IMG/VR virus record: IMGVR_UViG_3300020036_000999
Location: 1 to 38,078 of that record
DNA length: 38,078 nt
Origin: a virus
Reading direction: 5' to 3' (one strand)
The number at the start of each line of letters is the position of its first letter. Position 1 is the stretch's first letter. The notes under the pieces are model-generated. The model did not search any database and was not told the DNA's origin. It saw only the letters and a program-made list of their open reading frames with translations. The translations under genes were made by a program, and so were the position numbers. Below, in pieces: positions 4,914 through 35,821 of this stretch.

Positions 4914-5846
4914 TTAAAAACCGTGAAGGCGCATCGCCTGTCTAACGGCATCTTCAGTAGTTGCAGGGATAACTGTTCGGTTCGCGCCCGCAGGTGAACC
5001 TTTAACCGATACCGCTGCTGCCTTTGCTGCTTTTGCAGCTTGGTCTGCCTGCGTTAAATTTTGACGATTCCCGCCGCCTTGCTGTTGAGCATAGACTTTT
5101 TGAAACGTATTATCGTTTAACCGCAATGCTTTTTCATAAGCATCATCCAAGTCGTTTGCAAGTCCACGTTCTAGCAGGTCTGCCATCGTTGACTGCACCT
5201 CGGTAAAATACTCATGACGTTGCGCAAAATCCGAAATTTTAGATTGAATTTGAGCGTCTTCGTGACTTTGTCTAAATTCCGAAGCATCTCGCAGTTGTCG
5301 TTCTTTTTCGTCTAGCTGCGCTTTAAGATTGTGCATGGTTGGGTCGTATGGCAAACCGGCTAGCTGGCTCATATCAATCTGATAATCATGCGCTAATTTC
5401 ATTAGCATTTCCGCTTTTTCTTGGTATGACCCTCGACGAAGCGTATGTTCTGTTTTTAGAAGATTAAAAAACGCGACGTCAGGCGTGACTTGCATTTCAT
5501 CTAAATAATTTTTGTACGGAGCAATCGACTTATCAATGGTTTTAGCAAAGTTAGCCGCCGATTTATATTGCTCTATCCCTCTATGGAACTGTTCTTCACG
5601 CTCTATAATATGCTTCTGTACAGTTTCTGGCAACTTTTCTAATTCGGCTGCCGCTTCCGCTTTCCATGATTTCCACGGTGAGCGTTCAGGAGGAGTTGTT
5701 TTTACTTCCTCTTGTGGAGCTTCCTCGCGAACTTCGGCGGGAGCTGAATCTTCAAGTTTATCCAGCTCACGGCCAATAATATCGTGTGTACTTTCTTCTA
5801 CTGCAACTTCTTCGACTGAGTCTTCAGCCGTCGTTTCTTCACTCAT
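4914..5846 (-). CDS. Scaffolding protein
   Basis: 310 aa. Very acidic N-terminus (EETTAEDSVEEVAVEE), then long helical/charged sequence and an Ala/Lys-rich C-terminus. Located immediately upstream of the capsid gene. Confidence 0.6.
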   Translation of the reverse strand: MSEETTAEDSVEEVAVEESTHDIIGRELDKLEDSAPAEVREEAPQEEVKTTPPERSPWKSWKAEAAAELEKLPETVQKHIIEREEQFHRGIEQYKSAANFAKTIDKSIAPYKNYLDEMQVTPDVAFFNLLKTEHTLRRGSYQEKAEMLMKLAHDYQIDMSQLAGLPYDPTMHNLKAQLDEKERQLRDASEFRQSHEDAQIQSKISDFAQRHEYFTEVQSTMADLLERGLANDLDDAYEKALRLNDNTFQKVYAQQQGGGNRQNLTQADQAAKAAKAAAVSVKGSPAGANRTVIPATTEDAVRQAMRLHGF

Positions 5847-6794: not shown

Positions 6795-7532
6795 TCATAA
6801 TAATAAAAGTATGGCTTCTTCGTCATCACGCTCGTCTTCAAGCATTTGCGCAATAGCAATTTCTAGTGCAGCCTTTTCAGTTTCTATGCGGAGGATTGCT
6901 TCATAATCCTCGACAAAGGTGTTGGGTTCTTCTACTTCTACTTTAGGCGCAACCTTAACCTTTGGCTTAGGTTCTCCGGTCACTGCCTCAACAGCATCTT
7001 CAATTGCTTTCTTAACGTCAGCGCTGTTGTTTTTATATTCTTTTTTCTTAGCTTTTATCCCGCCCCTTGTTGGCATCGCCGAAGGTTCTGGTTCTTGATT
7101 AGCAAGGAAAATAATATCTTCTAAAGTTACCGCTAACGAGCCTGCATGAACATTTGCGCCTGCCGCTAAGAAAGTTACGCTTTCAAGCGTTAGCGCCATT
7201 TCCCCAGTAACTTTGCCAGCGCCGCGAGCATCAAAGATAATGTCGTCTAATGTAAGCGCTAATGTGCCGTTGTGCTTAATTACTCCCGACACTGCAACCG
7301 CAATATCATCTAGCGTAACCGCTAGACTTCCAGTGTGACCGTTAACCCCTGCTCCAGCAAGCGTAATATCATCTAATGTGACTGCTAATGTGCCGTTATG
7401 CGTTACAGAACCAGAACCAGCAAATACAATGTCGTCTAACGTAACAGCTAACGTTCCAGTGATGCTTGTGCCACTTCCTTGCGTTGGAAGTGCGGCAAAA
7501 GGACTGTCAGCAAAAGGATTATGCCCAAACAT
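6795..7532 (-). CDS. Repeat protein: six tandem 21-aa units plus a Lys-rich linker and an acidic helical C-terminus
   Basis: 245 aa. Repeat units are G[TS]LAVTLDDI.[FL]AG.G....H[NT]. The C-terminus is ...EDERDDEEAILLLL. Confidence 0.5.
   Translation of the reverse strand: MFGHNPFADSPFAALPTQGSGTSITGTLAVTLDDIVFAGSGSVTHNGTLAVTLDDITLAGAGVNGHTGSLAVTLDDIAVAVSGVIKHNGTLALTLDDIIFDARGAGKVTGEMALTLESVTFLAAGANVHAGSLAVTLEDIIFLANQEPEPSAMPTRGGIKAKKKEYKNNSADVKKAIEDAVEAVTGEPKPKVKVAPKVEVEEPNTFVEDYEAILRIETEKAALEIAIAQMLEDERDDEEAILLLL
7098..7457 (-). repeat. About 5.7 tandem copies of a 63-nt (21-aa) coding repeat
   Basis: Protein residues 26 to about 145 read GTLAVTLDDIVFAGSGSVTHN / GTLAVTLDDITLAGAGVNGHT / GSLAVTLDDIAVAVSGVIKHN / GTLALTLDDIIFDARGAGKVT / GEMALTLESVTFLAAGANVHA / GSLAVTLEDIIFLA. 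Confidence 0.85.
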
Positions 7533-12508: not shown

Positions 12509-13812
12509 TATATTCGTCTACCTCTACGTTTCGAGCTGTGTTCCCACAACTCCTCTAAGGACTGGTCTTCCCAGAATTTTGCTTTGGGTTTTGGCGCTGC
12601 GTCTGGTCGTTGTTCACGCCATGCAAGACACGCGTACCGGAAAGCGTCAGCAAAGTGAGATGTCCAATCGTGTTTAGGTCGTTCATTAAACACCTTTTTG
12701 TCCACATTATACTCTCTTTGGTACTGTGTTAGCGCTTCCATTCCTTCTTTGCAACTTGGGTCGAACCAACAGTTTGCTAATGATAACCTAGCGGCTTGTA
12801 TCCCGTCCATAAGTGATATGTTTGGCACAATTCTAGGCGACCACCCAAGTGACCTAAACTGCTCCTCGATACTTCTGCCTGTTTGCAGTGATTTAGCCTT
12901 CGCATCGTGCGGCAAGTACAGCCATTCGCCGTAATCATAGCCTTTACTCTGCAAAATGTCATGATAGTGCGCGATAGGCATACCGCTGTTGCTGTAGCAG
13001 TCAATAAACCTAAGCTCTTTGCCCGCCACTTGGAACCACCAAATCGCCGTGTCGTCACTCCACCCCAAATCGATAGCCGCAAATGTCTTGAGCTTGCGGT
13101 CATAGCAAGGTCTTTCCCTGCCCGACTGCTTCACTTCGTACATTTCCTTACCATATATCGCCCCCGGTATCGCCGCGTCGAAGTTGCACTCCATCTCTTG
13201 CAGCCATGCGTCCTCCGACAACTCCTTCCTCAACGCGTCTATTTCCTCTTGGTCGAGGATACCCGAATTTGAAGCTGTCAACAGCAGGGTAAAACAGTCC
13301 TTATCTTGTTTACCCGCTTCAAAACGTTCATAAAAGCTATTCTTACCCTTTGGCGTTCCAATAATTATCGCCCACCCTTTGCGGTCAGCCAGCGCAGGAC
13401 GGATAACATATGGCCATACAGTTGACTTCCAATCGCCATACTCGTCAGCAATAATCCCGTCAAAGTAAAGACCGCGCAACCTGTCAGGATTGTCAGCACC
13501 AAATAACTGAATACGCGCCCCGTTTGGAAAATCGAGTCGTAATTCACTTTCGTTCACCTTTATGTTGGGTATGGGTTTTGTAAACGTCTTACAGTAATCC
13601 CAGATTACTTGTTTTGCCTGTGAGTAGTATGGGCAGATGTAGGCATACCTACCATCTCCACTAGCGTCCATACAAGCACACTTTATCAATTCGTTAATAC
13701 ACGCTACCGACTTGCCCGCCCTTCTGTGAGCAACCACAACTGCCCATCTTTCTTTTCTTGCGTGGAGTGGTCGAAATACATCTCTTGGCTTATAGGGTAT
13801 GACAACCTTCAT
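12508..13812 (-). CDS. terL: Terminase large subunit
   Basis: Walker A-like AHRRAGKS, Walker B-like GIIADEYGDW, and a C-terminal nuclease region with conserved acidic residues. Start refined to ATG 13812 (ATGA overlap with the upstream stop); the track start is a GTG. Confidence 0.85.
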   Translation of the reverse strand: MKVVIPYKPRDVFRPLHARKERWAVVVAHRRAGKSVACINELIKCACMDASGDGRYAYICPYYSQAKQVIWDYCKTFTKPIPNIKVNESELRLDFPNGARIQLFGADNPDRLRGLYFDGIIADEYGDWKSTVWPYVIRPALADRKGWAIIIGTPKGKNSFYERFEAGKQDKDCFTLLLTASNSGILDQEEIDALRKELSEDAWLQEMECNFDAAIPGAIYGKEMYEVKQSGRERPCYDRKLKTFAAIDLGWSDDTAIWWFQVAGKELRFIDCYSNSGMPIAHYHDILQSKGYDYGEWLYLPHDAKAKSLQTGRSIEEQFRSLGWSPRIVPNISLMDGIQAARLSLANCWFDPSCKEGMEALTQYQREYNVDKKVFNERPKHDWTSHFADAFRYACLAWREQRPDAAPKPKAKFWEDQSLEELWEHSSKRRGRRI

Positions 13813-14186
13813 GATTCCCACCCTATGACAAGGCTTGCCGCTGTGCCGTCCGCGTTAGTGATACCAAACGCCACTTTGTTTTGCTCTTTAGCGCTTGCCC
13901 ACCCGTGTACGTTCTGAAGGATAGCTAACGCCGCCTTTGTGTCGCCACCTAGCGCCGCGTCTTTTAACACCTGTGCCATTTGCGCCTCTGCGTCGGCAGC
14001 ACCCTTCATCGTCATTAACTCGACGTTTGGGTCTAGCTGGCACAGTTGCCGATACTCGCTTGGAAGTAGCCCCGCAGCAAGGGCGAGCTTGTCACCCTTT
14101 AGCCCAAGCGCTGACGCATCGTAAATGGCGTTTAGGCGCGCCTCTGTCACTTTTAACTCTCTTGGTGAATATGGAAATGATTGCAT
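13809..14186 (-). CDS. Putative terminase small subunit
   Basis: 125-aa helical ORF immediately upstream of and overlapping terL, and the first gene of the late operon. Assigned by position only. Confidence 0.45.
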   Translation of the reverse strand: MQSFPYSPRELKVTEARLNAIYDASALGLKGDKLALAAGLLPSEYRQLCQLDPNVELMTMKGAADAEAQMAQVLKDAALGGDTKAALAILQNVHGWASAKEQNKVAFGITNADGTAASLVIGWES

Positions 14187-14295
14187 GGTCGCATGAATCC
14201 TTAGCTTGTGAAAAATATTTATAATATATATGGAAATGACTTTTTTGGCTGTGAATGTTTTGCATCGCCTTCGGAATTGAACGCCCCCCCCTATG

Positions 14296-14311
14296 CGTCA
14301 ATTATTTGACG
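14296..14311. promoter_or_regulatory. Operator-like palindrome CGTCAA-ttat-TTGACG (copy 1)
   Basis: Perfect 6-bp arms with a 4-bp spacer, preceded by C8-TAT. Confidence 0.5.
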
Positions 14312-14481
14312 GTATATATGAAAAATGCTTTTACTATATGTGAAAACGCTAATGTTGGAGATGGTAGGCCTGCCAGTCGTCTTGTCAAGTCCTCCCCACC
14401 TGCGCTTTTTTATTTTATTTTAACCCCCCCCTATCGCTGCAAGCCACGAAATACGCGGGCTGCAGAGGATTCAAGGATAAG

Positions 14482-14497
14482 TGTCAATTATTTGACG
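14482..14497. promoter_or_regulatory. Operator-like palindrome TGTCAA-ttat-TTGACG (copy 2)
   Basis: Same motif as copy 1. Shares the left flank AAGGaTAAG with copy 3. Confidence 0.5.
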
Positions 14498-14516
14498 TTA
14501 TTGCAAGTCTTTGATT

Positions 14517-14544
14517 CTTATAGCTTATTAAGGGTAAGCGTCAA
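14517..14544 (-). promoter_or_regulatory. Candidate sigma70-type promoter facing the terminase/late operon
   Basis: On the minus strand: TTGACG (14544..14539), 16 nt, TATAAG (14522..14517). The -35 is one arm of palindrome 3. Confidence 0.4.
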
Positions 14545-14554
14545 TATATTGACA
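14539..14554. promoter_or_regulatory. Operator-like palindrome CGTCAA-tata-TTGACA (copy 3; core GTCAATATATTGAC is a perfect 14-mer palindrome)
   Basis: Read directly. Overlaps the -35 of the candidate minus-strand promoter. Confidence 0.5.
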
Positions 14555-14587
14555 CTATGGCTACCTTGCACCGGCTTGACTAGGTTT

Positions 14588-14958
14588 GTAGGCAGTCGTT
14601 ACCAGTCTTTTCTGCACTGCCTACAATTGACAACGACACACTTTGCCAGATTGCACCCGTCTAAAAGTGTAGGCAGTGTAGGCAGTGTAGGCACTGCCTA
14701 CAAAGTCGCCAGAAATTCGTGGAGAGTTATACGGCTTATAATATATACATCTAATTTTTAAAGTAGATAATGGTATACCAACAACCACCCACAATCCCGC
14801 CAGCATAGAGCGGGCGTGGGCGCGCGCGTAGGCAGTCAATTGATTGCTAAACTACCCACCGCATACAGACACGCTACCAACAAACAACAAAAAGTATTGC
14901 AAAAGTTAAAACTTGCTGTATAATCTTTTGCAAGTCGTCACTTTTGGCGACTGCCTAC
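14588..14958. repeat. Cluster of 8 copies of the 9-mer GTAGGCAGT / ACTGCCTAC
   Basis: Forward copies at 14588, 14669, 14678, 14687 (one mismatch) and 14828. Reverse copies at 14616, 14693 and 14950. 14669..14701 is three tandem copies abutting an inverted copy. Two reverse copies extend to ACTGCCTACAAT(T)GACAAC. Confidence 0.85.
14897..14933 (+). promoter_or_regulatory. Near-consensus early promoter of the ardA operon, embedded in a 9-bp perfect inverted repeat
   Basis: TTGCAA (14897..14902), 16 nt, TATAAT (14919..14924). TTGCAAAAG (14897..14905) pairs with CTTTTGCAA (14925..14933). The ardA ATG is 63 nt downstream of the -10. Confidence 0.6.
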
Positions 14959-14986
14959 AATGACAACAATTTGAGAGACTACCAAC

Positions 14987-15469
14987 ATGAAAATTTACGT
15001 CGGAACATATAACAAGTATAACAATGGCAGCATTGCAGGCGCGTGGCTAGATTTAAGCGACTACAATGACGCCGAACAATTTATCGACGCGTGTAAGGAA
15101 TTACACAATGATGAAATTGACCCTGAATTGATGTTTCAAGATTTTGATGACATACACAAAAACTATTGCCGCGAGTGTATCGACATTGCTGAAGTCTATT
15201 ATTATGTCAACGCTTGCAATGGTGATGGTAAAGACGTCATTGATGCAGGGCTTGATTGTGAAATACCACTTGATTCAATCATGGACGCGTATATCGGCGG
15301 TTATGAAAGTGATGTTGATTTTGCTTACGATATGGCCGAACAATGTGGCTACTTAACCTTAGAGACTAACGCGTGGCCGTATAACTGCATTGACTGGCAT
15401 AAAGCGGCGCGCGAGTTAATGTTTGATAACGTAGAATCAAAAGGTCATTACTTTAACTGTCATTTTTAA
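14987..15469 (+). CDS. ardA: ArdA-family antirestriction protein (DNA mimic, anti type I restriction-modification)
   Basis: The N-terminus MKIYVGTYNKYNNGSIAGAWLDLS matches the ArdA signature (YvanLg.YNeG.L.GaW.dl). Highly acidic. The C-terminal CIDWHKAARELM resembles ArdA YIDY.AYGRDL. Confidence 0.85.
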   Translation: MKIYVGTYNKYNNGSIAGAWLDLSDYNDAEQFIDACKELHNDEIDPELMFQDFDDIHKNYCRECIDIAEVYYYVNACNGDGKDVIDAGLDCEIPLDSIMDAYIGGYESDVDFAYDMAEQCGYLTLETNAWPYNCIDWHKAARELMFDNVESKGHYFNCHF

Positions 15470-15547
15470 GATTCCAGCGTGTAGCGCGTGGCTAACGTCG
15501 CGCGTTATGCGGTGTAATTTTGCACCTAATAAAAATAAGGTTTAACA

Positions 15548-15814
15548 ATGAAAACATATAGAATTTTATCAATTGACGCGTGGCGTGAATGTGAGGGTTA
15601 CACTTGGAACGCGTGGTATGACGCGGGCGATATTACACCCGACGCAATCCATTGGAACGCGCGTAAGCTGCTGAAATATTTTCGTGATAACGGTTTTTTA
15701 ACTGAAAAAAGCGCCGGTAAATGTGCAATTGAAGACGACCAGTATAATATTGTTATTGTTGAACGTTCAACGCGCCGGCCCTTGTTTGCTATTGAATATG
15801 GGGTAGACAACTAA
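15548..15814 (+). CDS. Hypothetical early protein (Trp-rich; SIDAWRECEGYTWNAWYD)
   Basis: 88-aa ORF with an AAGG SD-like sequence upstream, co-oriented with ardA. Confidence 0.5.
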   Translation: MKTYRILSIDAWRECEGYTWNAWYDAGDITPDAIHWNARKLLKYFRDNGFLTEKSAGKCAIEDDQYNIVIVERSTRRPLFAIEYGVDN

Positions 15815-16032
15815 TGACGACTATATACCTAGAATTTATTGACGCCCCTATGTGGTATCACACGCGCGGGTTAATGCAAACCGCAACAGGTTACGGTCGC
15901 AAACTAAACACCGGCAAAAAAGCTATTGTAGGCGACAAAGAATATCGCGTTTATGCTAGTTGCTTCTCAAATGTAGCGTGTCTTTATATCATCATTAAAG
16001 GCGTCAAAATTTACGTTGATAACTGGAAATAA
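15814..16032 (+). CDS. Hypothetical early protein
   Basis: 72 aa, TAATG-coupled to the upstream ORF. Contains the motif TGYGRKL.T......eYRVY...FSN. Confidence 0.5.
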   Translation: MTTIYLEFIDAPMWYHTRGLMQTATGYGRKLNTGKKAIVGDKEYRVYASCFSNVACLYIIIKGVKIYVDNWK

Positions 16033-16036
16033 TAAA

Positions 16037-16234
16037 ATGAAAACATATTTAATAAATGACGACGAATTATTCAATTATAGGGTTGAAGCTACCAGTTACC
16101 ACCAAGCCATTGCACTATTTAAAGACTTATATCGCGTTCAAGGCCGGTTACGGTTGACGGCGCGTTATGCAAACGTTAAAGAATACAAACTTGATAAATC
16201 AAACTATAAATTTAGCATAAAGGAACTAACATGA
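16037..16234 (+). CDS. Hypothetical early protein
   Basis: Start refined to ATG 16037 (MKTYLINDDE...); the track start at 16016 is a TTG. 65 aa. Confidence 0.45.
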   Translation: MKTYLINDDELFNYRVEATSYHQAIALFKDLYRVQGRLRLTARYANVKEYKLDKSNYKFSIKELT

Positions 16235-16293
16235 TAATAATATTTTTGATGCTGATTAAATTCGCAATACTGGCGATAATGCTAGAAAACTAA
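16231..16293 (+). CDS. Possible 20-aa hydrophobic micro-peptide (MIIIFLMLIKFAILAIMLEN)
   Basis: ATGA overlap with the upstream stop. It ends 8 nt before the terminator. Not in the ORF track (under 60 aa). Very short, so uncertain. Confidence 0.25.
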   Translation: MIIIFLMLIKFAILAIMLEN

Positions 16294-16300
16294 ACAAAGA

Positions 16301-16326
16301 ACCCGCGATAACAAGCGGGTTTTTTA
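16301..16326 (+). terminator. Rho-independent terminator of the ardA operon (first of two)
   Basis: ACCCGC-gataacaa-GCGGGT followed by TTTTTAT. Confidence 0.8.
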
Positions 16327-16343
16327 TTGCATCAAACAATTGC

Positions 16344-16365
16344 AAGGGCTTAACGCCCTTTTTTA
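16344..16365 (+). terminator. Second tandem rho-independent terminator
   Basis: AAGGGC-ttaac-GCCCTT followed by TTTTAT. Confidence 0.7.
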
Positions 16366-16540
16366 TTGCCTACCATTTAACGGCCTACAATGGCCGATAG
16401 ACTGCAAAACAATTTAAAGCAATACTACCCTACGCCTTATCATTCAATCAACCAATGACAAGCCAATAAAAGCTATTCTATAACCCTATTCAATAGCAGG
16501 TGTAGCACGGGTTAACAGGCAATTGAACGCGTAAAATCTT

Positions 16541-16655
16541 ATTTGATGGTCATTTGATAGGCTCAGAATTTCAAATCTGGTAAGGGCTAGGATTTCAAAT
16601 CTAATGAACGGCCAAATTCTGCCACGAAACGATTTGCAAAATTCTGCCACGAAAC
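16541..16655. repeat. Three pairs of short direct repeats (iteron-like)
   Basis: ATTTGAT at 16541 and 16552 (11-bp phase). ATTTCAAATCT at 16568 and 16592. AAATTCTGCCACGAAAC at 16614 and 16639 (25-bp phase). Confidence 0.8.
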
Positions 16656-16661
16656 CGATTG

Positions 16662-16730
<69 letters not shown>

Positions 16731-16768
16731 CCATGAACTAACAATTAGAGAGAATTGTTAGAGGTATG

Positions 16769-19039
16769 TTATTTGATTGCTACAACTTTTGCAACAGGTT
16801 TCTGCTCTGCCAAATCCCGAAGGCTAGATTTGCTCATGTGCGCAAACTCAGGTGCGCAGAAGACGTGCTTCTTAGTCTTAACAGAGCGCGACGCACACAT
16901 ACCGACATCAACCCAACCTGCTTCTTCAAGCGCGTGGAACAGCGCGGCAGGCGGGAATTGTTTACTGCCAAACGACATAGCAGCTCGCTCACAAATTGCC
17001 TGAAAAGGAGAGGCAATCACGCCCGACGCAAACTCACCCATACGCAAAGAAATCATATCCAGCAGTGATGACTCAACAGCAGACATACCATTCTGCACCA
17101 GTGACATCTTAAAGTCCGTCATAGGTGCAGGCGCAGCAGGGTTGAACGCGCTAACGTCACGGTTAAACAACCAGTTAGCGATAAGGTCATATCCACCGTT
17201 GTTAAACCAGCTCCAAATACGCGACGCAACATCAGGCGGAAGACGCGACGCGTTGCTCCATGTACCAAACCACCGACGGTCACCCGATTCAAGCGACAGC
17301 GGCACACGGTCATTAGAGAACGCAAGCACGGCAAGACGGTTTACAAGATTGTAAGGGGCAAGACCTTTACGGTTAACTGATAGCATCTCAGGTGGCGCGG
17401 CGATGACTGGCTTGAGTTTGTTCGCAAGCATCCGACGTGCGGCGCTGTCTGCTTCTTTAAGCTCGTTAATGACTACGATTTCTGCTTCAAGATGATACCC
17501 CCACGCGGACTGAATCGTATCAGTAGACATCAGAGAGTAATTGCGCAGGTTAGGCCCGCATACGGCGTATATGAACGGCGCGTACATGGTGTCTTTACCG
17601 ATACCTTGACCGCCAGCGTGAAGGATAGCGTGGTTAATCTTAACGCGTGGGTTCTGCACCTTGAACGCCATGTAATCCCAGATATGCGCAAGCTCACGCT
17701 CATCTGGAACAAGAGATTTACAGTGGTCGAGCCATAGAGATATGTCGCCGCCCAAATTTCCGCCACGGGACGAATTGGGGCGGGCGTCGCGCCACCGGTT
17801 GCCGTAAAGCTCACCGTCACGCGTAGCAATAACAGAATCACCGGCAGCAAAGGTAATACCTGCAAGCACTTTAGCGCCCATCACCTGACGGTTTTCGTCA
17901 AAGCTCATTGCTGCTTCAACTTTACGGTCAGAGTGAATACTCTTGCACGACACATGACGGTAGACGGCGTTAAACGTCTGGCGTGAGAACTCACGACGGT
18001 TCTGCAAATCGAAATAAGAATCGTCAGACATAACGTACGCAAAGCGCTGATACCACTCTGCCTTCTCAAGCCGTGCGATTTCCTTCTGTTCGACTTCTGC
18101 AATAATAGCGGCGGCGTCAGTGCTGAACATATCCGACGGCTCAAGTTTGCCAATCGCATTGTGCATCACCTCCGCCAATATTTCCTCCCGAAGACCGTGT
18201 GAGTGCTTAGGTCCACCCATCTCAGCCACCCACGCGAGGTAAGTACGACTGTCCCATGACGAACAATGTCCGTGAAAGCAACAGTAAGCGCGGTTGAGCG
18301 GGTGGTATCTGCCCATCAACTGCCCATCAGTATGCTCGGCGTGGTTAGGGCAGACTACGCCAACCCAGCCTTCAGCATTAGCAGACTCCATCACGTCGCC
18401 ACGAGAGGCTAACCAGTCAAGCACTTCATCGTTGCCTGTGTCAATAATAGCGATTGGACGCACGGACGCGGTGTCAGCATCAGACGGGTGAACATCCAGC
18501 GCCGAGCAAATTTGGTCGAGGGTAAACTCACGCTCAGGGTGGAATTCTACAAGGATAGACTGAAACGATGCGCGGTCAGGCTTTAAATTGACCGACGCAG
18601 GCAGGCGAAAATTCCGCACAGGGTTAATTGCGCCGCTGTCAGTGTAGCCAGCGTCAGCGATTGCTTTAATAGCTGCACTGAATTCACCCTTAGTGGGCAT
18701 ATCATCTAAAGCGAAGGTGTAGCCCCATTGAAAATTTTGCGGTGAGGTCTCCATTATCCACGTCGGCTCAATGGGCGGGCGTAAACTCTTAGTGCCAATA
18801 TCATCAAGCACAAGGAAGGCGACATACTCGCAGTTGCCCGCACTCGCAGACGGTTTGCCCTCTTTAAAGCGTGACGTGATAAACGACGCGGTATTGCCAT
18901 ACCATGCACCCTTGCCATCGTACTTTGCTGGCAAGTAAGCTGGCCACGCAAACTGACCATTGTCTTTAGCTATTTGTTTGACCAGAAGGACGCTCTCGCC
19001 CTCAGGTGCAATACGTTCCAAATACTTAATAAAATTCAT
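16769..19039 (-). CDS. Bifunctional primase-helicase (AEP prim-pol N-terminus, Cys/His zinc region, SF3/D5/VirE-like P-loop helicase)
   Basis: DxD-type motif FLVLDDIG. CPNHAEH...CCFHGHC. Walker A GGQGIGKDT and Walker B VVINEL. Start refined to MNFIKYL (ATG 19039, ATGA overlap with the polymerase stop). Confidence 0.8.
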   Translation of the reverse strand: MNFIKYLERIAPEGESVLLVKQIAKDNGQFAWPAYLPAKYDGKGAWYGNTASFITSRFKEGKPSASAGNCEYVAFLVLDDIGTKSLRPPIEPTWIMETSPQNFQWGYTFALDDMPTKGEFSAAIKAIADAGYTDSGAINPVRNFRLPASVNLKPDRASFQSILVEFHPEREFTLDQICSALDVHPSDADTASVRPIAIIDTGNDEVLDWLASRGDVMESANAEGWVGVVCPNHAEHTDGQLMGRYHPLNRAYCCFHGHCSSWDSRTYLAWVAEMGGPKHSHGLREEILAEVMHNAIGKLEPSDMFSTDAAAIIAEVEQKEIARLEKAEWYQRFAYVMSDDSYFDLQNRREFSRQTFNAVYRHVSCKSIHSDRKVEAAMSFDENRQVMGAKVLAGITFAAGDSVIATRDGELYGNRWRDARPNSSRGGNLGGDISLWLDHCKSLVPDERELAHIWDYMAFKVQNPRVKINHAILHAGGQGIGKDTMYAPFIYAVCGPNLRNYSLMSTDTIQSAWGYHLEAEIVVINELKEADSAARRMLANKLKPVIAAPPEMLSVNRKGLAPYNLVNRLAVLAFSNDRVPLSLESGDRRWFGTWSNASRLPPDVASRIWSWFNNGGYDLIANWLFNRDVSAFNPAAPAPMTDFKMSLVQNGMSAVESSLLDMISLRMGEFASGVIASPFQAICERAAMSFGSKQFPPAALFHALEEAGWVDVGMCASRSVKTKKHVFCAPEFAHMSKSSLRDLAEQKPVAKVVAIK

Positions 19040-20949
19040 TTTCCATATCTCTCTAATGTTGATACACCAACGGCTAGCGGTAAGCCTTCTGCCCATGCAG
19101 GAGCGCTACACATCACCGTTTCCAAGTCTTGCGCGGCGCTTTCCGCGTCTTCTTTTTTCACTTCTAAGACGATTTCATCGTGAACATGAAGCACGACAGT
19201 ATGCCCGATTCGACGCAACGCGTCACGAAGTAAATCGTTGGCAATCGCTTGTGTAATATTCTCACAAGCAAGTCCAGCCCATAGCCTAGCTCGCGGCCAT
19301 TCAACTGCATCAGCAGCGGGTTTCCACGCCGCCTTAGCGTAAGATACGCTACCGTCTTCAATGTATGCCGACGGGTAGCACAGCACCCGACCCGAAGGCA
19401 GGGCGTACCACAAATTCACGCCATCAAACAGATACGTCACGCGCCCAGCGGTAAACTCACGACCTTTGTGACGCATGGCGCACATATACGCCCGCTCAAG
19501 CTCACCCCAGTAGCGCACTGCCCAAGTGTTACTGCGACGCCACGCGTCAACGGTACGTTTAGCCTCCGCTTCAGGCAGTGAGATGCCATAGGCTTTGCCC
19601 ATTGCACCAAACGCGCCAGCACCACCCATATAACCACACGACAGAATCGCCACTTTACCTATCTGACGTTGGTCAGGCGTGATGGCGTCCATTGGACGGT
19701 TAAAGATACCTGCCGCCGCGCGAATGTAGATGTCCTCACCCGTGCGAAACACATCAAGCACATCTTCACTGCCATGCTGCAAACTAGCCCAAGGCGTCAC
19801 ACGCGCTTCAATACCTGCCCAATCTGCTACCACGAACACATTACCATCGGCAGGTATTAGCGCAGGGCGAAGCATACCTTTTAGAACGTCCGTAACGCGC
19901 TTGCCATGCACTGGAACGATGTTGCGCCCGATGACCATATCATCGCGCACTCGCTGTGGCTCTTTAGCGCATTTACGCGTGAAGTTATGCACCTGCGCAC
20001 CATATGACGACGCTCGACCAGTTGCACTGCCACCGTTGAACACAAACGCGCCACGCACACGGTGGTCTTCAAAGTCCGCAAGGTAAAGCAGACGATTAAA
20101 CTTCGCCACCGACGACGCCCACAGGTCATCAGCGCACTGAATCACCTCACCAACGTGCGAGGGGATTTCCTCTGGGTCGTCAATCAACATCAAATTAGCG
20201 CGAACGCTTTTATCAATGGAATACTTCTCACCGTTCCACATCAACGCACGCGCCGCAGGGCCGACACGCTCAAGCACCCACTCACGCATCTTAGGCGAGC
20301 GAACGGACTTAATTGCACCGTCGGTCAGCTCCACGACACGCGATTGGATTTCTTCAAGCTCGACACTGGCGTAACGCATTGCGGCGCGACACAGGTCAAC
20401 GTCCACGAGAACACCCGCGTCGTTAATGCGCTCATTGACGTGATAATCCGCAAGCTCGTCATCAGTCAATTGACGTAGCGCAGTAGACACTGCTCGCATA
20501 GTCCGAACGTCTTGACGGCAATACTCGATAAGCTCAGGTAGCAGTTTGGTGTTAAATGGTGGAGTGCAGCACTGCTTGACTAGCATCTTGCCTCGGTGGT
20601 CTTTGCGCATTTCGCTAGAGATAGCACGACCAACGTCTTCTAAACTGCCGGGAAGACAATTAGCGCGGGCTTGCACAGCCGTGCAGTAAAACTGCTCTAA
20701 CTTAAAGTCTATCTGTAGAACGTACCAAAAGATTAACCGCTCAAAGGCAGCGTTATGCGCGCGTATCTGACCCGTGTAGTTGCGCACGTCATCGGGGAAC
20801 GGCAAGTTAGGCGTCCATGTCTGCACGTCACCATCATCAAAGGCGTAGCACATACACAGCACGTCAGTAGATAGGTCTTGCGCGTAATTGTAGACGCCGT
20901 GCTTGGGCAGGTCACATTCGCTCTTTGTTTCAAAGTCAATATATAGCAT
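19036..20949 (-). CDS. Family A DNA polymerase with an N-terminal 3'-5' exonuclease
   Basis: ExoI IDFETKS, ExoII HNAAFE, ExoIII YCRQDV. Pol motif A VVADWAGIEAR, motif B RQIGKVAILSCGYMGG, motif C LHVHDEIV. Start refined to MLYIDFET (ATG 20949, TGATG overlap). Confidence 0.9.
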   Translation of the reverse strand: MLYIDFETKSECDLPKHGVYNYAQDLSTDVLCMCYAFDDGDVQTWTPNLPFPDDVRNYTGQIRAHNAAFERLIFWYVLQIDFKLEQFYCTAVQARANCLPGSLEDVGRAISSEMRKDHRGKMLVKQCCTPPFNTKLLPELIEYCRQDVRTMRAVSTALRQLTDDELADYHVNERINDAGVLVDVDLCRAAMRYASVELEEIQSRVVELTDGAIKSVRSPKMREWVLERVGPAARALMWNGEKYSIDKSVRANLMLIDDPEEIPSHVGEVIQCADDLWASSVAKFNRLLYLADFEDHRVRGAFVFNGGSATGRASSYGAQVHNFTRKCAKEPQRVRDDMVIGRNIVPVHGKRVTDVLKGMLRPALIPADGNVFVVADWAGIEARVTPWASLQHGSEDVLDVFRTGEDIYIRAAAGIFNRPMDAITPDQRQIGKVAILSCGYMGGAGAFGAMGKAYGISLPEAEAKRTVDAWRRSNTWAVRYWGELERAYMCAMRHKGREFTAGRVTYLFDGVNLWYALPSGRVLCYPSAYIEDGSVSYAKAAWKPAADAVEWPRARLWAGLACENITQAIANDLLRDALRRIGHTVVLHVHDEIVLEVKKEDAESAAQDLETVMCSAPAWAEGLPLAVGVSTLERYGK

Positions 20950-21818
20950 CAAAACACCTCGCACGATTCTGAACACGCACCGGCAGAGTCTAAATCATCA
21001 TTAAAATTAGCCATAGTAACTCTGTACCCATCCACAAAAGGTTCAAAAGGCAGTTTTGCTTCAGCTAGAATATCTTTAGTAGATTTAGCACCTCGAAAAA
21101 ATACACGCTGATACTCAGGGTCTAAATTAAAACCGGCGTTACCATACATAGCCTCCATTCTTGCAGGAAAATCAAAGATAGCAGGGTTTTCTTTAGCTAA
21201 AGTTAATAACTTACGTTTAGACTTTTTCCAACACCATTTACAATTACCTTCATGTTCGTGCAAATTAAGCCTAAAAGGTTGCAGTTCCCAAAAGTTTCTA
21301 ACTTCTTGCTTAGTAATTTTTAAATCAATTAACGGGTAGATGATTCTGTTTTCTGAAAACTTGGCGCTAACCCTATCAAGCTCATCTAACCGAATACCTA
21401 TGGCAGTATCATACGACCCGCTTTCCCACCCTAAATTGCGAACGTATTTAGTTATAGGCGCTAACTTTAGTTCTCTTGTGCAAATAGGCTGCTTTTGATT
21501 AGGTATGCCGTACTTTTTAATAATTTCTTCAAATGGCTCACCTAACCTAGAAGCAGACGCAAAATCTACCACGTTAAATCCTGAACCTTTGCGTTCGTTA
21601 TGGAATACTTTAGTTTCAAGCCATACGACATTAAAGTTAAAATGCTTGTCACATAAGTCAACGAATTTCAATGTAGCTTCGCTTTCTTGTCCAGTATTGG
21701 CAAACAAAACAACGGTTTCTTTATAGGGGTTATTTTTTAGCAATAGCGAGGTCATAAAACCTGAAGTTTCTCCGCCGCTAAAACTTATTAAAAGTCTGTC
21801 TTTTTTATTTGTATTCAT
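20949..21818 (-). CDS. PP-loop ATP pyrophosphatase, PAPS-reductase-family protein with C-terminal Cys motifs
   Basis: PP-loop SFSGGETS at residues 12-19. CKWCWKKS and CSESC occur near the C-terminus. About 37% GC versus about 60% in a sampled line of the adjacent polymerase gene. Confidence 0.7.
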   Translation of the reverse strand: MNTNKKDRLLISFSGGETSGFMTSLLLKNNPYKETVVLFANTGQESEATLKFVDLCDKHFNFNVVWLETKVFHNERKGSGFNVVDFASASRLGEPFEEIIKKYGIPNQKQPICTRELKLAPITKYVRNLGWESGSYDTAIGIRLDELDRVSAKFSENRIIYPLIDLKITKQEVRNFWELQPFRLNLHEHEGNCKWCWKKSKRKLLTLAKENPAIFDFPARMEAMYGNAGFNLDPEYQRVFFRGAKSTKDILAEAKLPFEPFVDGYRVTMANFNDDLDSAGACSESCEVF

Positions 21819-24123: not shown

Positions 24124-24368
24124 GTGCAACTTTACTTCTCACATTATCTTTTTTGACTGTCGATACCAATATCGACAAGAAAGGGCGCACTACGACGCAT
24201 GAAACGATTGCGTACACAACCAGCGCTATACCCTACGAGTCTATGCGGGCGTGTACTAACGCTCGTGAAGAATGGAATCTTGCTATTGGAGCTTACCAAA
24301 TGAGTAAGCGCCCTACTCGCATCATAATGGCGGTGTGTAATGACAGCGCAATGGGAGTGGTAGAGTGA
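24120..24368 (+). CDS. Hypothetical protein with a hydrophobic, signal-like N-terminus
   Basis: 82-aa ORF, ATGA-coupled upstream. Confidence 0.45.
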   Translation: MSATLLLTLSFLTVDTNIDKKGRTTTHETIAYTTSAIPYESMRACTNAREEWNLAIGAYQMSKRPTRIIMAVCNDSAMGVVE

Positions 24369-24565
24369 CCGAGATAACTTTAAAAGCCTACTGCGCGGCA
24401 CATAAAGTTAGCCGCACCAGTATGGACTATCACATCGTTAAGATGGGGGTATATCCTGCCGGCAGTATAAGATTATCCGAAGCAGGCGCACCGTCATTCT
24501 TGTGGCGCGTTAAAGATTTAGACAAAGCCAGACTTAGACTTGGCATTAGAGGGAATGGAAAATGA
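24365..24565 (+). CDS. Small putative helix-turn-helix (HTH) DNA-binding protein
   Basis: 66 aa. GTG start overlaps the upstream stop (GTGA), with GGGAG 8 nt upstream. LKAYCAAHKVSRTSMDYHIVKMG looks like a helix-turn-helix. Confidence 0.4.
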   Translation: MTEITLKAYCAAHKVSRTSMDYHIVKMGVYPAGSIRLSEAGAPSFLWRVKDLDKARLRLGIRGNGK

Positions 24566-24765
24566 AAGACGAATACAAAGGTTGGGTGGTCGCAGTTATA
24601 TTTGCAACGTGTTTTATCATAGCGCAAGCGACTAACTATGTGGACAACAAGCACCGGCACACTATCATCAAAACCAATATTGGTGAGTTTATTCTTCGCG
24701 ACGGTAAACTGTATGGTGTGTATGAAATGTCCAGAGATGTGCAAGGTAATATGGTGTCAAAATGA
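24562..24765 (+). CDS. Hypothetical single-TM protein
   Basis: 67 aa, ATGA-coupled. TM segment WVVAVIFATCFIIA. Confidence 0.45.
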   Translation: MKDEYKGWVVAVIFATCFIIAQATNYVDNKHRHTIIKTNIGEFILRDGKLYGVYEMSRDVQGNMVSK

Positions 24766-26165: not shown

Positions 26166-26326
26166 TGTACGCATTTAAAAGTGGACCCGTAGACCAAGAC
26201 CCAACCATCAAAGCGCTACGCGGCGAGGATATGGAAAACTACATGAATTTGCTCAAATGGCTAGATACCGTGCCGTTTATCCCCTTGAAGGTAAGCGACA
26301 TTGTGTTGCCTTGGCGGGATAGATGA
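26165..26326 (+). CDS. Hypothetical protein (53 aa)
   Basis: Start refined to MYAFKSG (TAATG overlap with the DUF3310 stop). Confidence 0.4.
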   Translation: MYAFKSGPVDQDPTIKALRGEDMENYMNLLKWLDTVPFIPLKVSDIVLPWRDR

Positions 26327-26706
26327 AACCAAAGCTCAAAACGATGAATGGGGTGTGGATATGCTACACCCCTTGCTGCTCCATTCCGATGATGGCAGAC
26401 CACCCCAAAACAGCGTACTTAAGATGGAAATTTATCAATGCTAAGACCCAACCAGATAGAAGCTGTTGCCTTTTTGAGCCAAATAGACAAAGGGATGATT
26501 CTTGCCCCAGTAGGGGCAGGCAAGACAGCAATAACATTGACAGCGATGAAGGAGGCGCTCGACACGGGCAGAGTACGTCGGTTCTTAGTGATAGCGCCAA
26601 AGCGTGTCTGCACGGATGTGTGGACGATAGAGCCGGCGAAGTGGGCGCCAAGTCTGACAGTATCTATCGCCGTTGGCTCGCTAAATCAGCGTCTAGCAGC
26701 ATTTGA
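26323..26706 (+). CDS. Small ORF coupled upstream (MKPKLKTMNGVWICYTPCCSIP...AYLRWKFI...). Its 3' extent is uncertain because it runs about 270 nt out of frame into the helicase gene.
   Basis: ATGA overlap at 26323. The first 38 or so codons precede the helicase ATG. The remainder overlaps the helicase in the -1 register. Confidence 0.3.
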   Translation: MKPKLKTMNGVWICYTPCCSIPMMADHPKTAYLRWKFINAKTQPDRSCCLFEPNRQRDDSCPSRGRQDSNNIDSDEGGARHGQSTSVLSDSAKACLHGCVDDRAGEVGAKSDSIYRRWLAKSASSSI

Positions 26707-35529: not shown

Positions 35530-35821
35530 TACTTCCTCCAAATAGCCCGTTCCACTTATTCTGCATACCCTGCATAAAACTGCCTTCGTCAGGTGTTTTA
35601 GCTTGTTGCGCAGCAAACGCAGGGTCAAACTTGCCAAACTCGTCAGCGTACTGCTGCGCGTCGCTTTTGCCGGCTTCTTTAATATCCTGATACCCTTTAG
35701 CTAACGTATCAGCGTTAGCCATTATTGTCTGTGCTGACGGCGCGGCGTTAAATTGCGGGTATTGCGGTTTATTTCTAAGTGCTTGCGCAAGCGCTTGTTG
35801 TTGTTGTTCGCCTAGCATCAT
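35522..35821 (-). CDS. Small Gln/Ala-rich virion-module protein
   Basis: 99 aa. The ATG shares one base with the upstream TAA (TAATG), and its stop overlaps the next ATG. Confidence 0.45.
   Translation of the reverse strand: MMLGEQQQQALAQALRNKPQYPQFNAAPSAQTIMANADTLAKGYQDIKEAGKSDAQQYADEFGKFDPAFAAQQAKTPDEGSFMQGMQNKWNGLFGGSNG

Follow-up and report, generated by a model that had tools for sequence, protein, structure and literature searches.

A multi-part non-coding hub with opposed 9-bp repeats and a candidate replication origin in an uncultured freshwater podophage

Comparison with related phages, which have its layout in common, supports the view that the 800 bp separating the late operon from the early one in an uncultured freshwater podophage, a non-coding gap, function as a multi-part cis-acting control hub. 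At the center of this hub, two arrays of a 9-bp repeat face each other across an AT-rich core, and we judge the chances to be about even that the gap is a combined replication origin and bidirectional promoter region, laid out like the origins of SaPIs, P4 or polyomaviruses, whose initiators are self-loading helicases. For nearly every uncultured phage, neither the replication origin nor the early/late control region is known. The gap offers a signature at the sequence level: opposed arrays of 9-mers flanking an AT-rich core, next to a sigma70-type early promoter and upstream of terS. Many metagenomic genomes of about 37-40 kb have this signature in common.

The window analyzed here, 38,078 nucleotides in length, is a complete circular assembly of a 37,957-bp genome. 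We found no cultured relative of this phage. A DNA similarity search with the window against GenBank phages gave no match. At the protein level TerS has a single GenBank relative, from a metagenomic phage that itself lacks annotation, which left nothing to transfer. The gap was compared across ~130 related metagenomic loci, with an alignment subset of 25 gap-spanning relatives (blastn, MAFFT). Related contigs have been binned into Burkholderiales and Rhodoferax MAGs.

Layout of the gap and its flanking modules

A sequence-only reading of the window had singled out the gap (14187-14986) as its largest non-coding stretch, placed between divergent terminase and ardA operons. Both points hold. The gap measures 800 nt and the next largest stretches 534 and 192 nt, and the flanking genes are as named. 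The late operon begins with a gene for a 125-aa TerS-like protein (13809..14186, minus strand), which overlaps the start of the gene for a Terminase_6N TerL. The early operon begins with ardA (14987..15469, plus strand; Pfam ArdA, E = 9e-21), the first gene of a cassette that is mosaic among relatives. Across clades, the order of 9-bp repeats (iterons), early cassette and primase-helicase is kept. Coding within the gap was rejected: a 168-aa ORF at 14255-14761 and several smaller ORFs are unconserved and broken by indels in relatives. We found no intrinsic terminators within the gap, no tRNAs in the genome, and nothing near threshold in an Rfam scan of 13800-16900. GC skew tracks gene orientation and is of no help in locating an origin.

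Relatives split the gap into four modules: a terS-side block, a slippage site, the iterons with their AT-rich core, and the early promoter with an RNA hairpin. The repeat families had been described as independent, and they do act as separate modules. The comparison with relatives that had been proposed as a check places the palindromes and G-run boxes in a conserved block of ~90% identity, whereas the fast-evolving 9-mer block keeps its layout and not its sequence.

The terS-proximal late-side control block (14187..14557, minus strand) is ~90% identical in close relatives (25 spanning sequences; blastn, MAFFT) and is probably non-coding, since its indels are not in multiples of 3 and no ORF is conserved. 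It contains the three palindromes of the earlier description: GTCA-W6-TGAC occurs at 14297, 14483 and 14540 and nowhere else in the genome, with 0.02 copies expected. Palindrome 1 (GTCAATTATTTGAC, 14297..14310) is present in many relatives as two copies 19 bp apart, palindrome 2 (GTCAATTATTTGAC, 14483..14496) is the best conserved of the three, and palindrome 3 (GTCAATATATTGAC, 14540..14553) is perfect and is missing from many relatives. The outer GTCA/TGAC is invariant among relatives and the center is a variable AT stretch. With half-sites at a fixed spacing, repeated and conserved, the palindromes are operator-like and resemble sites for a dimeric helix-turn-helix protein. The minus-strand promoter TTGACG-16-TATAAG that had been read from one palindrome arm is present in the sequence, but it is not a conserved promoter, because palindrome 3, its source, is absent from many close relatives.

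The two reported copies of CCCCCCCCTAT were also recovered, at 14284 and 14424 (ATAG8 on the minus strand). Both of these G-run boxes read ATAGGGGGGGG on the minus strand; box 1 (14284..14294) adjoins palindrome 1 and box 2 spans 14424..14434. The G-run varies in relatives from C7 to C10, and an ATAG7-8 box occurs twice in the clade with 82% TerL identity (L056, near 5384 and 5479). A 12-bp direct repeat, ATATGGAAATGA, is found at 14169 and 14228 as claimed, but the 14169 copy falls within the terS coding sequence. Two promoter-like units form a direct repeat on the minus strand, TTTCCATATATATTATAAATATTTTTCA (14209..14236) and TTTTCACATATAGTAAAAGCATTTTTCA (14319..14346). The first, just upstream of the terS ribosome-binding site, is a candidate late promoter. 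Paired units of this kind (..TAAATCTTTTGCATTTT..) are present in the TerL-82% clade (L056, 5445-5515), and in relative L001 the unit (copy 2) takes the form of three tandem 15-mers. A further leftward candidate, the sigma70-like TTGACA-16-TACCAT (14361..14388, minus strand), was identified by promoter match; its -35 block, GGACTTGACAAGACGACTGGC, is almost invariant in close relatives.

The other end of the gap carries a sigma70-type early promoter, TTGCAA-16-TATAAT (14897..14924, plus strand), which agrees with the consensus at 10/12 positions and is near-invariant in 25 relatives. As judged from its sequence, this promoter drives ardA and the remaining early cassette. Other clades have sigma70-like promoters 35-60 nt upstream of the first early gene, detected by scan in L081 and L163 and by eye in L164. 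The promoter had been described as near-consensus, with a perfect 9-bp inverted repeat. Promoter and repeat (TTGCAAAAG/CTTTTGCAA) are both real, but relatives keep only TTGCA(W) and TTTGCAAG, and the hexamer TTGCAA is palindromic on its own. The predicted early transcript has at its 5' end a stem-loop with an 8-bp stem and a 4-nt loop (14933..14952, plus strand). In the alignment, 94.3% of cells are paired and three pairs are changed on both sides. At pair 11-22, 15 sequences have GC and 7 have AU; at pair 12-21, 12 have UG, 8 have UA and 1 has GC. The observed covariation score was reached by 0/500 shuffles, and the U-G/U-A/G-C alternation holds on the plus strand only. Its probable role is to shield the transcript at the 5' end.

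Opposed 9-bp repeats around an AT-rich core

The 9-mer GTAGGCAGT/ACTGCCTAC has seven exact copies, all within 14588-14958 (14588+, 14616-, 14669+, 14678+, 14693-, 14828+ and 14950-). The motif enrichment test that the sequence-only reading had called for gave an expected count of 0.24, and 0/100 shuffles reached 7. Eight copies in both orientations had been claimed; seven are exact, but the eighth (GTAGGCACT, 14687) counts only with one mismatch. This copy completes the triple tandem at a 9-bp period that had been described as abutting an inverted copy. The two extended copies, ACTGCCTACAAT(T)GACAAC, are found at 14616 and 14950. For the degenerate pattern TGT-D-D-N-Y-A, 12 of the 93 matches in the genome fall within 2% of its length (p = 6.6e-7). 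The core had also been said to recur at ~16383. A copy, ACGGCCTACA, does occur in the second non-coding zone (16380..16389, plus strand), but it is a single copy with one mismatch and could be a chance match.

The repeats are arranged in two arms. The left arm (14587..14702) has six TGTAGGCAGT copies, at 14587>, 14616<, 14668>, 14677>, 14686> (one mismatch) and 14693<, and contains the triple at 9-bp period. In the right arm (14827..14883), CGTAGGCAGT (14827>) faces a degenerate ACTACCCAC (14855<), which is followed by other degenerate '<' copies (TACCAACA); at this position relatives have an inverted pair and three direct copies with an 11-bp period. One more copy abuts the hairpin in the early 5' UTR (14950..14959, minus strand; ACTGCCTACA on the plus strand), and its central bases vary freely in relatives (ACTGNNTAC). 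Between the arms lies an AT-rich core of ~65 bp (14719..14783), a candidate DNA-unwinding element. Its 60-nt stacking energy of -65.5, compared to a genome mean of -82.8 (sd 5.4), puts it among the four least stable windows, an instability that is not unique to the core, the early cassette being equally AT-rich. The core contains a weak promoter-like TATACA-16-GATAAT and is bordered by a GC-rich segment (CCCGCCAGCATAGAGCGGGCGTGGGCGCGCGCG, 14795..14826); a GC-rich border is present in other clades as well. In the window, '>' copies lie mainly to the left of the core and '<' copies mainly to the right, which is the pattern of the family.

Each clade has its own 9-mer, and nearly all of them fit TGT-D-D-N-Y-A. 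Six clade representatives have six different 9-mers: TGTAGGCAG (this genome), TGTAGTCAG, TGTGGGCAG, ATGTTAGCT, ATGTGTCAA and TGTGGACAA. In all six, the terS-side copies are '>' and the early-side copies '<', aimed at the AT-rich core, and an equivalent core lies between the arms in the five representatives of other clades. Over 50 loci, TGT-D-D-N-Y-A had 556 matches upstream of terS vs 126 in adjacent coding sequence. The '>' copies were closer to terS than the '<' copies in 38/49 loci, a fraction that overstates the number of independent observations because of the phylogenetic relatedness of these loci. Clades with TerS identity as low as 56% still have the TGT...YA frame and the two arms, and arrays at 9-bp and at 11-bp period both occur. 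On a finer scale, close strains (TerL 97-99% identical) bear different 9-mer variants that have changed together within each genome. Variants are homogenized within genomes, and some genomes have mixed types.

A candidate initiator and parallels to known origins

An early/late switch, a pac site or an origin had all been proposed for the gap. An origin fits the 9-mers best, because of the opposed arrays around an AT-rich core, the DnaA-box sequences in two clades and the single locus; a pac site read by TerS is disfavored. Seven exact copies and one near copy cluster within 14587-14959, and an AT-rich center with at least two opposed repeats per side is found in the window, in the five other clade representatives and in 38/49 (phylogenetically related) loci. 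The repeats are not adjacent to the primase-helicase gene: its 3' end is 1.8 kb away, on the far side of the early cassette. An alternative place for the origin could be a second non-coding zone that also bears repeats; it includes a 33-nt poly(A) run and follows the primase gene directly on its downstream side.

If the gap is an origin, a phage-encoded initiator would bind the repeats on both arms, melt the AT-rich core and load the phage's own helicase in both directions, in the manner of SaPI Rep, P4 alpha and polyomavirus large T antigen. The likeliest initiator would be the primase-helicase, with either the winged helix at its C-terminus or the template-binding domain of its primase making the contact. 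The initiator would read mainly the outer bases (TGT...YA), and the middle bases would drift and be homogenized among copies by slippage or gene conversion; clade- and strain-specific versions of the repeat would follow. It would also modulate early transcription, given that the early promoter directly follows the right arm and that one copy sits at about +20.

The sequence-only reading had seen no obvious regulator besides a 66-aa ORF. This was too strong: a helix-turn-helix is predicted in the TerS-like protein and a winged helix in the primase-helicase. The primase-helicase (gene 16769-19096) has DUF5906 and primase matches and is a fusion of an AEP-type primase and an SF3/D5-type helicase. 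The winged-helix domain predicted at its C-terminus by AF2 and Foldseek (16856..17005, minus strand) was modeled as a helix-helix-hairpin unit with pLDDT of about 90. All top Foldseek matches were winged-helix DNA-binding domains, with weak E-values of 0.04-1. The protein had no sequence match to P4 alpha or SaPI Rep, and P4 alpha was absent from the structure matches too. We infer from the model that this winged helix is the leading candidate for the iteron reader. Its predicted recognition helix (AALFHALEEAGW) is conserved across clades; if this domain reads the iterons, specificity would therefore have to sit in the wing. The residues of the wing vary from clade to clade, each having its own wing sequence and its own 9-mer, a correspondence that is inseparable from shared ancestry. 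Within the clade of the window, where strains have TGTAGGCAG, TGTAGTCAG or TGTGGGCAG, no winged-helix column tracks the repeat variant. A search for per-column association with repeat type in TerS, TerL, the primase and two early proteins yielded only the Ser/Thr-rich linker of the primase (residues 615-629), whose association is partial.

The winged helix of SaPI5 Pri-Rep reads 6-12 short iterons that lie on both sides of an AT-rich center in opposite orientations (PMC9371898). SaPI origins are like the gap in having many short repeats at one locus, opposed around an AT-rich center, and in a repeat sequence that differs between related elements (PMC9371898). The phage protein, too, is a fusion of primase and helicase with a predicted winged helix at the C-terminus, which is the domain order of SaPI5 Pri-Rep. 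By contrast, SaPI iterons are 5-6 nt long and immediately downstream of rep, whereas those of the phage are 9 nt long, at a distance from the primase-helicase gene and in a region shared with early and late promoters. Moreover, the fine-scale covariation of repeat and winged helix was not found in the phage.

The ori of P4 has TGTTCACC octamers in both orientations that are bound by the C-terminal winged-helix domain of alpha, in which a primase is joined to an SF3 helicase; crr, a further cis site, lies elsewhere. The 9-mers of the phage likewise start with TGT and its candidate initiator has the same domain order. The repeat-like copy in the second non-coding zone is reminiscent of crr, but it is only one weak copy, and P4 ori is not a divergent promoter region. 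In SV40 and other polyomaviruses, the control region combines the origin and both promoters between divergent early and late units. SV40 ori has opposed pentanucleotide repeats and an AT tract that are read by the SF3 helicase large T antigen. Polyomaviruses also have strain-variable tandem duplications, and their initiator autoregulates early transcription. By analogy, the phage window appears to combine the same features; it differs in being a bacterial system with sigma70-type promoters and 9-mers, in which the initiator is only a candidate. If the origin reading is true, the gap would be a bacterial-virus counterpart of the polyomavirus control region. Lactococcal phage c2 has its origin in a ~600 bp non-coding region that is rich in direct and inverted repeats and carries the early promoter. 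The c2 early transcript is thought to prime replication, and we know of no iteron-binding initiator for this phage. Its origin region resembles the gap in lying between divergent early and late genes, but the phage lineage and host are unrelated.

We also considered a broader proposal, which we hold tentatively and regard as rather doubtful: that the origin and bidirectional promoter region of this freshwater podophage family uses 9-bp repeats that derive from or mimic host DnaA boxes and that diversify quickly and in concert as strain 'barcodes'. The family would be widespread, uncultured and probably infecting Burkholderiales. Diversification would reflect an arms race over replicon specificity, for example escape from origin decoys, satellites or co-infecting relatives. 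The repeats would be read by a phage protein that recognizes the TGT...YA frame only, or by one with as yet unlocated specificity residues. Were the origin reading true, phage iterons would be linked to DnaA boxes and origin specificity would diversify between strains that share 97-99% identity in other respects, with implications for interference among phages and between phages and satellites.

Alternative readings of the repeats

The 9-mers could instead form an operator array, coated by a phage DNA-binding protein for early shut-off or activation and the late switch, with no role in replication. We consider this unlikely. The gap does contain both early and late promoter regions, in several clades the early promoter follows the right arm at a distance of ~35-110 bp, and the +20 copy in the window would suit an operator. 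In relative L081, the AT-rich core bears a near-perfect LexA box (TACTGTATAAATATACAGTA), which marks it as a regulated promoter region in that clade. The short abutting repeats, present in both orientations, are also similar to the heptad operators to which ribbon-helix-helix repressors such as omega bind. However, the repeats are found at no other promoter region of the genome, and an operator array gives no reason to expect two arms facing each other across an AT-rich core, or canonical DnaA boxes in two clades. Readers are lacking as well. No early-cassette protein is common to the clades that share the layout, and these proteins were rejected as candidates. The 66-aa HTH-like ORF (24365-24565) and its 67-aa neighbor have no match in Pfam or PHROG. 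Like many specificity factors, the two proteins (24365-24765) come in sharply different allelic forms in otherwise close relatives. These forms track neither 9-mer nor palindrome type, and both proteins were rejected as readers. The operator and origin models are not exclusive, since initiators commonly autoregulate. DNA looping between 9-mers that flank the early promoter could also be accommodated by an operator array.

Host DnaA could bind the 9-mers as strong or weak DnaA boxes and open the core, or be titrated by them, which we think quite unlikely. A phage-encoded reader would not be needed. In two clades the repeat is an exact DnaA box (TTATNCACA or TTGTCCACA): the L162 group has the canonical TTATACACA/TTATGCACA, with 9 of the 15 boxes in the locus falling in the gap, and the L163 group the canonical TTGTCCACA, with 7 of 11 in the gap. 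As in bacterial oriC, units of 9 bp lie beside a (putative) AT-rich unwinding element. The 11-bp period of direct copies in relatives (9-mer plus 2 bp) is that of the low-affinity DnaA arrays of E. coli oriC, and the MAGs with related contigs belong to Burkholderiales and Rhodoferax, in which canonical DnaA boxes are in use. The window repeat itself, however, fails the consensus: CTGCCTACA differs from TTATNCACA at four positions, CACA core included. A search for TTATNCACA with <=1 mismatch gave one one-mismatch match in the gap and no exact match genome-wide. The 9-mers of most clades are not DnaA-like, and the concerted variants that distinguish strains with 97-99% identical TerL would not be selected by an unchanging host protein.

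A pac site, at which TerS oligomers bind repeats beside their own gene and direct the first terminase cut, is very unlikely to account for the 9-mers. The repeats adjoin terS, tandem copies at a 9-bp period could wrap around a TerS ring, and many related contigs end within the gap. The TerS-like protein had no match in Pfam or PHROG. Its AF2 model is helical, with a predicted helix-turn-helix at residues 32-51 followed by a long helix, and among its best Foldseek matches, all of them weak (E about 1), are the small terminases 2ao9 and 6w7t. Homologues (n=267) lie beside TerL and a P22-type portal in every locus examined. However, the same predicted recognition helix, PSEYRQLCQL, occurs in the window (CTGCCTACA), in the TerL-82% clade (TWGCTAACA) and in L162 (TTATACACA), clades whose 9-mers differ at 4-5/9 positions. 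Its invariance argues against a pac site read by TerS and led us to reject TerS as the 9-mer reader. Furthermore, repeat type is not associated with any column in the TerS or TerL alignments. The contig ends are spread over about 600 nt (roughly 14380-14970), at the same places as hypervariable tandem arrays, and so look like assembly breaks. Fixed genome ends or a cos site were rejected as well, the ends in relatives failing to coincide. In addition, the window was assembled as a circle with its overlap elsewhere, and the pac site of P22-like phages lies within the terS gene. The conserved G-run boxes or the palindromes could be TerS sites.

The slippage hotspot (14558..14586) is single-copy in the window. 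In most relatives, it is a tandem array of a different unit (6, 7, 9, 12 or 14 nt), and their contigs often break there; the tandem arrays explain the assembly breaks at this spot in this phage family. That the 9-mers are themselves by-products of slippage and gene conversion in a tolerant spacer, with no sequence-specific function, is a far-fetched reading: the zone does generate arrays of arbitrary units and variants are homogenized within genomes, some of them mixed, but slippage yields head-to-tail arrays, not dispersed two-orientation copies with conserved inward polarity, and the TGT...YA frame and two arms have outlasted divergence to 56% TerS identity. For the origin reading, the proneness to slippage is compatible with frequent unwinding or initiation in this zone.

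The intergenic gap and its late-side block

The window covers an entire phage genome whose assembly is circular: bases 1-121 recur at 37958-38078, leaving a unit of 37,957 bp. Its gene products include a TerL with a T4-type N-domain, a portal that is a distant relative of the Mx8 and Brucella Tb-like podophage portals, ArdA, a DNA polymerase of family A, a primase-helicase (DUF5906), an exonuclease (DUF2800/PD-(D/E)XK), a helicase of the SNF2 type and an endolysin. No nucleotide match was found among 50,697 GenBank phage records, the terS-like protein matched a single metagenomic record, and Burkholderiales and Rhodoferax MAGs contain binned contigs related to the window. The late operon runs on the minus strand from terS (14186) over the circular junction as far as the endolysin gene, and a short early cassette on the plus strand begins with ardA. 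The gap between them (14187-14986), proposed as a control hub in the sequence-only reading, is indeed the largest non-coding stretch (800 nt, versus 534 and 192 nt for the next two).

We gathered 249 related loci, ~130 of which span or adjoin the gap, by IMG/VR searches with TerL, the helicase and TerS, by TerS-homologue look-ups and by one genome-contig scan. Alignment of 25 close relatives (TerL 97-100% identical), each spanning the entire gap, divided it into four modules: a terS-proximal block (14187-14557), a site at ~14558-14586 that is single-copy in the window and a tandem array in most relatives, the 9-mer repeats (14587-14883), and the early promoter with the sequence immediately downstream (14897-14959). 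The terS-proximal block is ~90% identical among close relatives, equal to the flanking genes, and indels among these relatives exclude a coding role. Found within it are the palindromes, a pair of promoter-like repeat units, the ribosome-binding site of terS and a leftward element, TTGACA-16-TACCAT, whose -35 block is near-invariant. Two G-run boxes, reading ATAG7-10 on the strand of terS, also belong to it and lie where they had been described as C8TAT boxes. GTCA-W6-TGAC palindromes occur three times in the genome, every one in the gap (14297, 14483 and 14540), against 0.02 expected, and the first is present twice in many relatives. The minus-strand promoter TTGACG-16-TATAAG noted earlier rests on the third palindrome, which is missing from many relatives. 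Both positions of the reported 12-mer repeat were correct, but one copy falls within the coding part of terS. The palindromes, with the G-run boxes, constitute a separate, slowly evolving late-side module that most likely controls the late promoter(s) via a putative dimeric DNA-binding protein; a role in TerS recognition is conceivable. The C/G homopolymer of the boxes (14284-14294 and 14424-14434) is 7 to 10 bases long depending on the relative, in genomes that are otherwise nearly identical; this could be true slippage, giving phase-variable spacing of the late control elements, or an error of homopolymer sequencing.

The unit of the adjoining tandem array is 6, 7, 9, 12 or 14 nt long depending on the relative. 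At the equivalent of 14558-14600, units among relatives L001-L078 include CCAGTT, CAGCAC, GCAGACA, CCCTTGCTA, GTCTGCCCTGCT and CCTGAGGTGGTCAG, and relatives at 82% TerL identity (the TerL-82% clade) carry CTTGCC and GTCA arrays; the sequence amplified in one relative, L033, is single-copy in the window. The gap is also a recurrent assembly breakpoint: contigs of many relatives, MAG contigs among them, end within it, three of them being 37.2-37.8 kb long. These ends are scattered over roughly 14380-14970, which fits assembly breaks in a repetitive, strain-variable zone and gives no pointer to a fixed DNA terminus.

The 9-mer arrays and the early promoter

The GTAGGCAGT family is real, with seven exact copies, all at 14588-14958, versus 0.24 expected, and the reported triple at a 9-bp period abutting an inverted copy is completed by an eighth, one-mismatch copy. 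Relatives in the window's clade carry ACTGCCTAC, ACTGACTAC, ACTGCCCAC or ACTACCTAC, usually with one dominant type per genome and mixtures in some. At the equivalent position, the TerL-82% clade has ATGTTAGCT/A copies in both orientations, including a triple at a 9-bp period, with a tandem array and ATAG7-8 boxes on the terS-ward side, and the more distant locus L081 (TerS 58% identical) has at least 12 copies of ATGTGTCAA/ATGTGCCAT. Across 50 loci upstream of TerS homologues, nearly every one contains a clade-specific 9-mer in 6-15 copies and both orientations, and almost all of these fit TGT-D-D-N-Y-A(A).

The copies are laid out in opposed sets. In six clade representatives, those on the terS side mostly point away from terS and those on the early side towards it, separated by 40-70 nt of at least 80% A+T with GC-rich DNA at the borders. 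Over the 50 loci, the degenerate pattern matched 556 times in the upstream 1.4 kb versus 126 in the adjacent coding 1.4 kb, its orientations peaking 200-600 nt and 400-800 nt from terS; 38 of 49 loci have the convergent arrangement, although the loci are phylogenetically related and such counts are therefore not independent observations. In the window, the gap holds 12 of the 93 genome-wide matches (p = 6.6e-7), and every copy in the '>' orientation lies left of an AT-rich core (14719-14783) that is among the four least stable 60-nt windows of the genome. In L081, a nearly perfect LexA SOS box (beta/gammaproteobacterial type; TACTGTATAAATATACAGTA, 5400-5419) lies in the AT-rich core between the repeat arms, a match that suggests SOS control of this region in the L081 clade; no LexA box was seen on reading the window's gap by eye.

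The TTGCAA-16-TATAAT early promoter was found where the sequence-only reading had put it and is essentially unchanged across close relatives; other clades have sigma70-like promoters 35-60 nt upstream of the first early gene. The inverted repeat described between its -35 and +1 regions largely follows from TTGCAA being itself a palindromic hexamer. GTCGTCA-N4-TGGCGAC starts ~2 nt downstream of the predicted transcription start, and its arms in relatives are GTCATC/GATGAC, GTCAGC/GCTGAC and GTTAAAA/TTTTAAC variants. In a 22-sequence alignment, 94% of hairpin cells were paired; one covarying pair was GC in 15 sequences and AU in 7, a second was UG in 12, UA in 8 and GC in 1, and the covariation score was reached by 0 of 500 shuffles. 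U-G pairs form on the plus strand only, so the element is a stem-loop of RNA, placed at the 5' end of the early message, rather than a DNA palindrome bound by protein. Given what is known of mRNA decay in bacteria, it would shield that end. The 9-mer copy at 14950 adjoins the hairpin and may not be a true family member, since its central bases (ACTGNNTAC) differ freely among relatives.

Candidate readers and function of the gap

We consider the chances about even that the gap is a combined origin and promoter region. This reading draws on the single-locus opposed arms, the AT-rich centre and the primase-helicase with its predicted winged helix, which match the architecture of SaPI origins. SaPI origins have 6-12 short iterons and an AT-rich centre, with two or more iterons on each flank and the flanks oppositely directed; their reader is the winged helix of a Rep that loads itself and, in SaPI5, is fused to the primase (PMC9371898). 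The gap likewise has short single-locus repeats in opposed arms around an AT-rich centre, and the window encodes a primase-helicase with a predicted C-terminal winged helix. SaPI origins share their build with the P4 ori, served by the alpha protein, and with that of polyomaviruses. In polyomaviruses, a single non-coding stretch separates the divergent early and late units; it contains the origin, the promoters of both units and tandem repeats that vary by strain, and early transcription is under feedback from the initiator. The likeness of the gap to this region would go beyond the origin itself.

The window's primase-helicase combines an AEP primase, which carries a zinc-binding motif, with an SF3/D5 helicase; its C-terminal domain is modelled as a winged helix (pLDDT ~90). 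The top structural matches of this domain were all winged-helix DNA binders, replication terminator protein and Orc1/Cdc6 among them, with weak E-values. Between clades the wing varies and helix 3 is constant; within the window clade, no winged-helix column tracked the repeat variant. Two observations weaken the case for an origin here: the repeats lie 1.8 kb from the candidate initiator gene, and the primase-helicase gene has, immediately on its downstream side, a second repeat-rich non-coding zone (16235-16768) that might serve replication in cis, instead of the gap or in addition to it.

A purely transcriptional operator array, itself compatible with an origin, is possible and distinctly less probable. 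Among candidate readers, no early-cassette protein is common to all clades. Adjacent 66-aa and 67-aa genes (24365-24565 and 24562-24765) have sharply distinct alleles among otherwise close relatives, and these alleles tracked neither repeat type nor palindrome type. The 66-aa protein is at least 95% identical in 13 relatives and below 70% in 30, and the 67-aa protein, with a hydrophobic N-terminus, is below 70% in 47 of 51; neighbouring genes are 83-96% identical. Judged by eye, the 66-aa product looks like a small DNA binder of the Xis/AlpA type, but it had no Pfam or PHROG match.

That the repeats form a host-DnaA element is improbable. Canonical DnaA boxes do occur in two groups of loci, as TTATACACA/TTATGCACA in the L162 group (9 of the 15 boxes of a 12.5-kb locus fall in the gap) and TTGTCCACA in the L163 group (7 of 11); the window repeat CTGCCTACA departs from the DnaA-box consensus. 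A pac site read by TerS is slightly less probable still. TerS is an unlikely reader of the 9-mers: its predicted recognition helix, PSEYRQLCQL, is the same in the window, the TerL-82% clade and L162, and their repeats differ at 4-5 of 9 positions. Slippage products without function are very unlikely.

For the favoured origin-and-promoter reading, the simplest account of the repeat data, we infer, is a reader protein that would recognise the outer TGT...YA frame of the 9-mers, while their central bases would drift and then be homogenised by slippage and conversion, both of which clearly take place in the gap zone. Precedents exist for every component of the gap. What is unusual is that the entire architecture is kept across a large, uncultured phage family, that the 9-mers form a continuum reaching true DnaA boxes, and that repeat sequence diversifies in concert, even between strains with TerL 97-99% identical.

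The second non-coding zone and other loci

The zone at 16235-16768 extends from the end of the early cassette to the primase-helicase 3' end and contains hairpin terminators (16300-16321 and, bidirectional, 16344-16360), paired GAATTTCAAATCT motifs, 2.3 copies of a 25-nt unit (16610-16667) and a 33-nt poly(A) run (16664-16696). The repeat and poly(A) run fall within an 82-aa ORF (16486-16734) that has only partial matches in relatives, at 55-82% identity; it is unlikely to be a gene. The equivalent zone of one relative, L047, has an 18-mer in three copies plus an (AGCAGG)n array.

Repeats also occur within late genes. A perfect 12-nt tandem repeat at 34070-34134 (TGTTGTACAGGC, 5.4 copies) is in frame and encodes a 4-aa repeat near the 3' end of a 545-aa minus-strand gene (34000-35637); few genes diverge as much in relatives as this one and the 945-aa gene beside it (median 60-63% identity). 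Three 63-nt repeats of 61-71% identity (7229-7461) lie within a 245-aa gene (6795-7532) that is unusually divergent (median 64%, minimum 26% identity) and may encode a repeat-domain surface protein under diversifying selection.

A 127-aa ORF (26323-26706), conserved in relatives at 70-95% identity, shares 270 nt, in another frame, with the start of the SNF2-type helicase gene (26438-27724); either the helicase start is mis-set or the ORF is a genuine overlapping gene. Finally, a 289-aa PAPS-reductase-like gene (20949-21818) between the DNA polymerase and nucleotidyltransferase-like genes looks like a recent insertion or replacement, since among the relatives fetched its product was matched over the full length in just two cases, at 44% identity.
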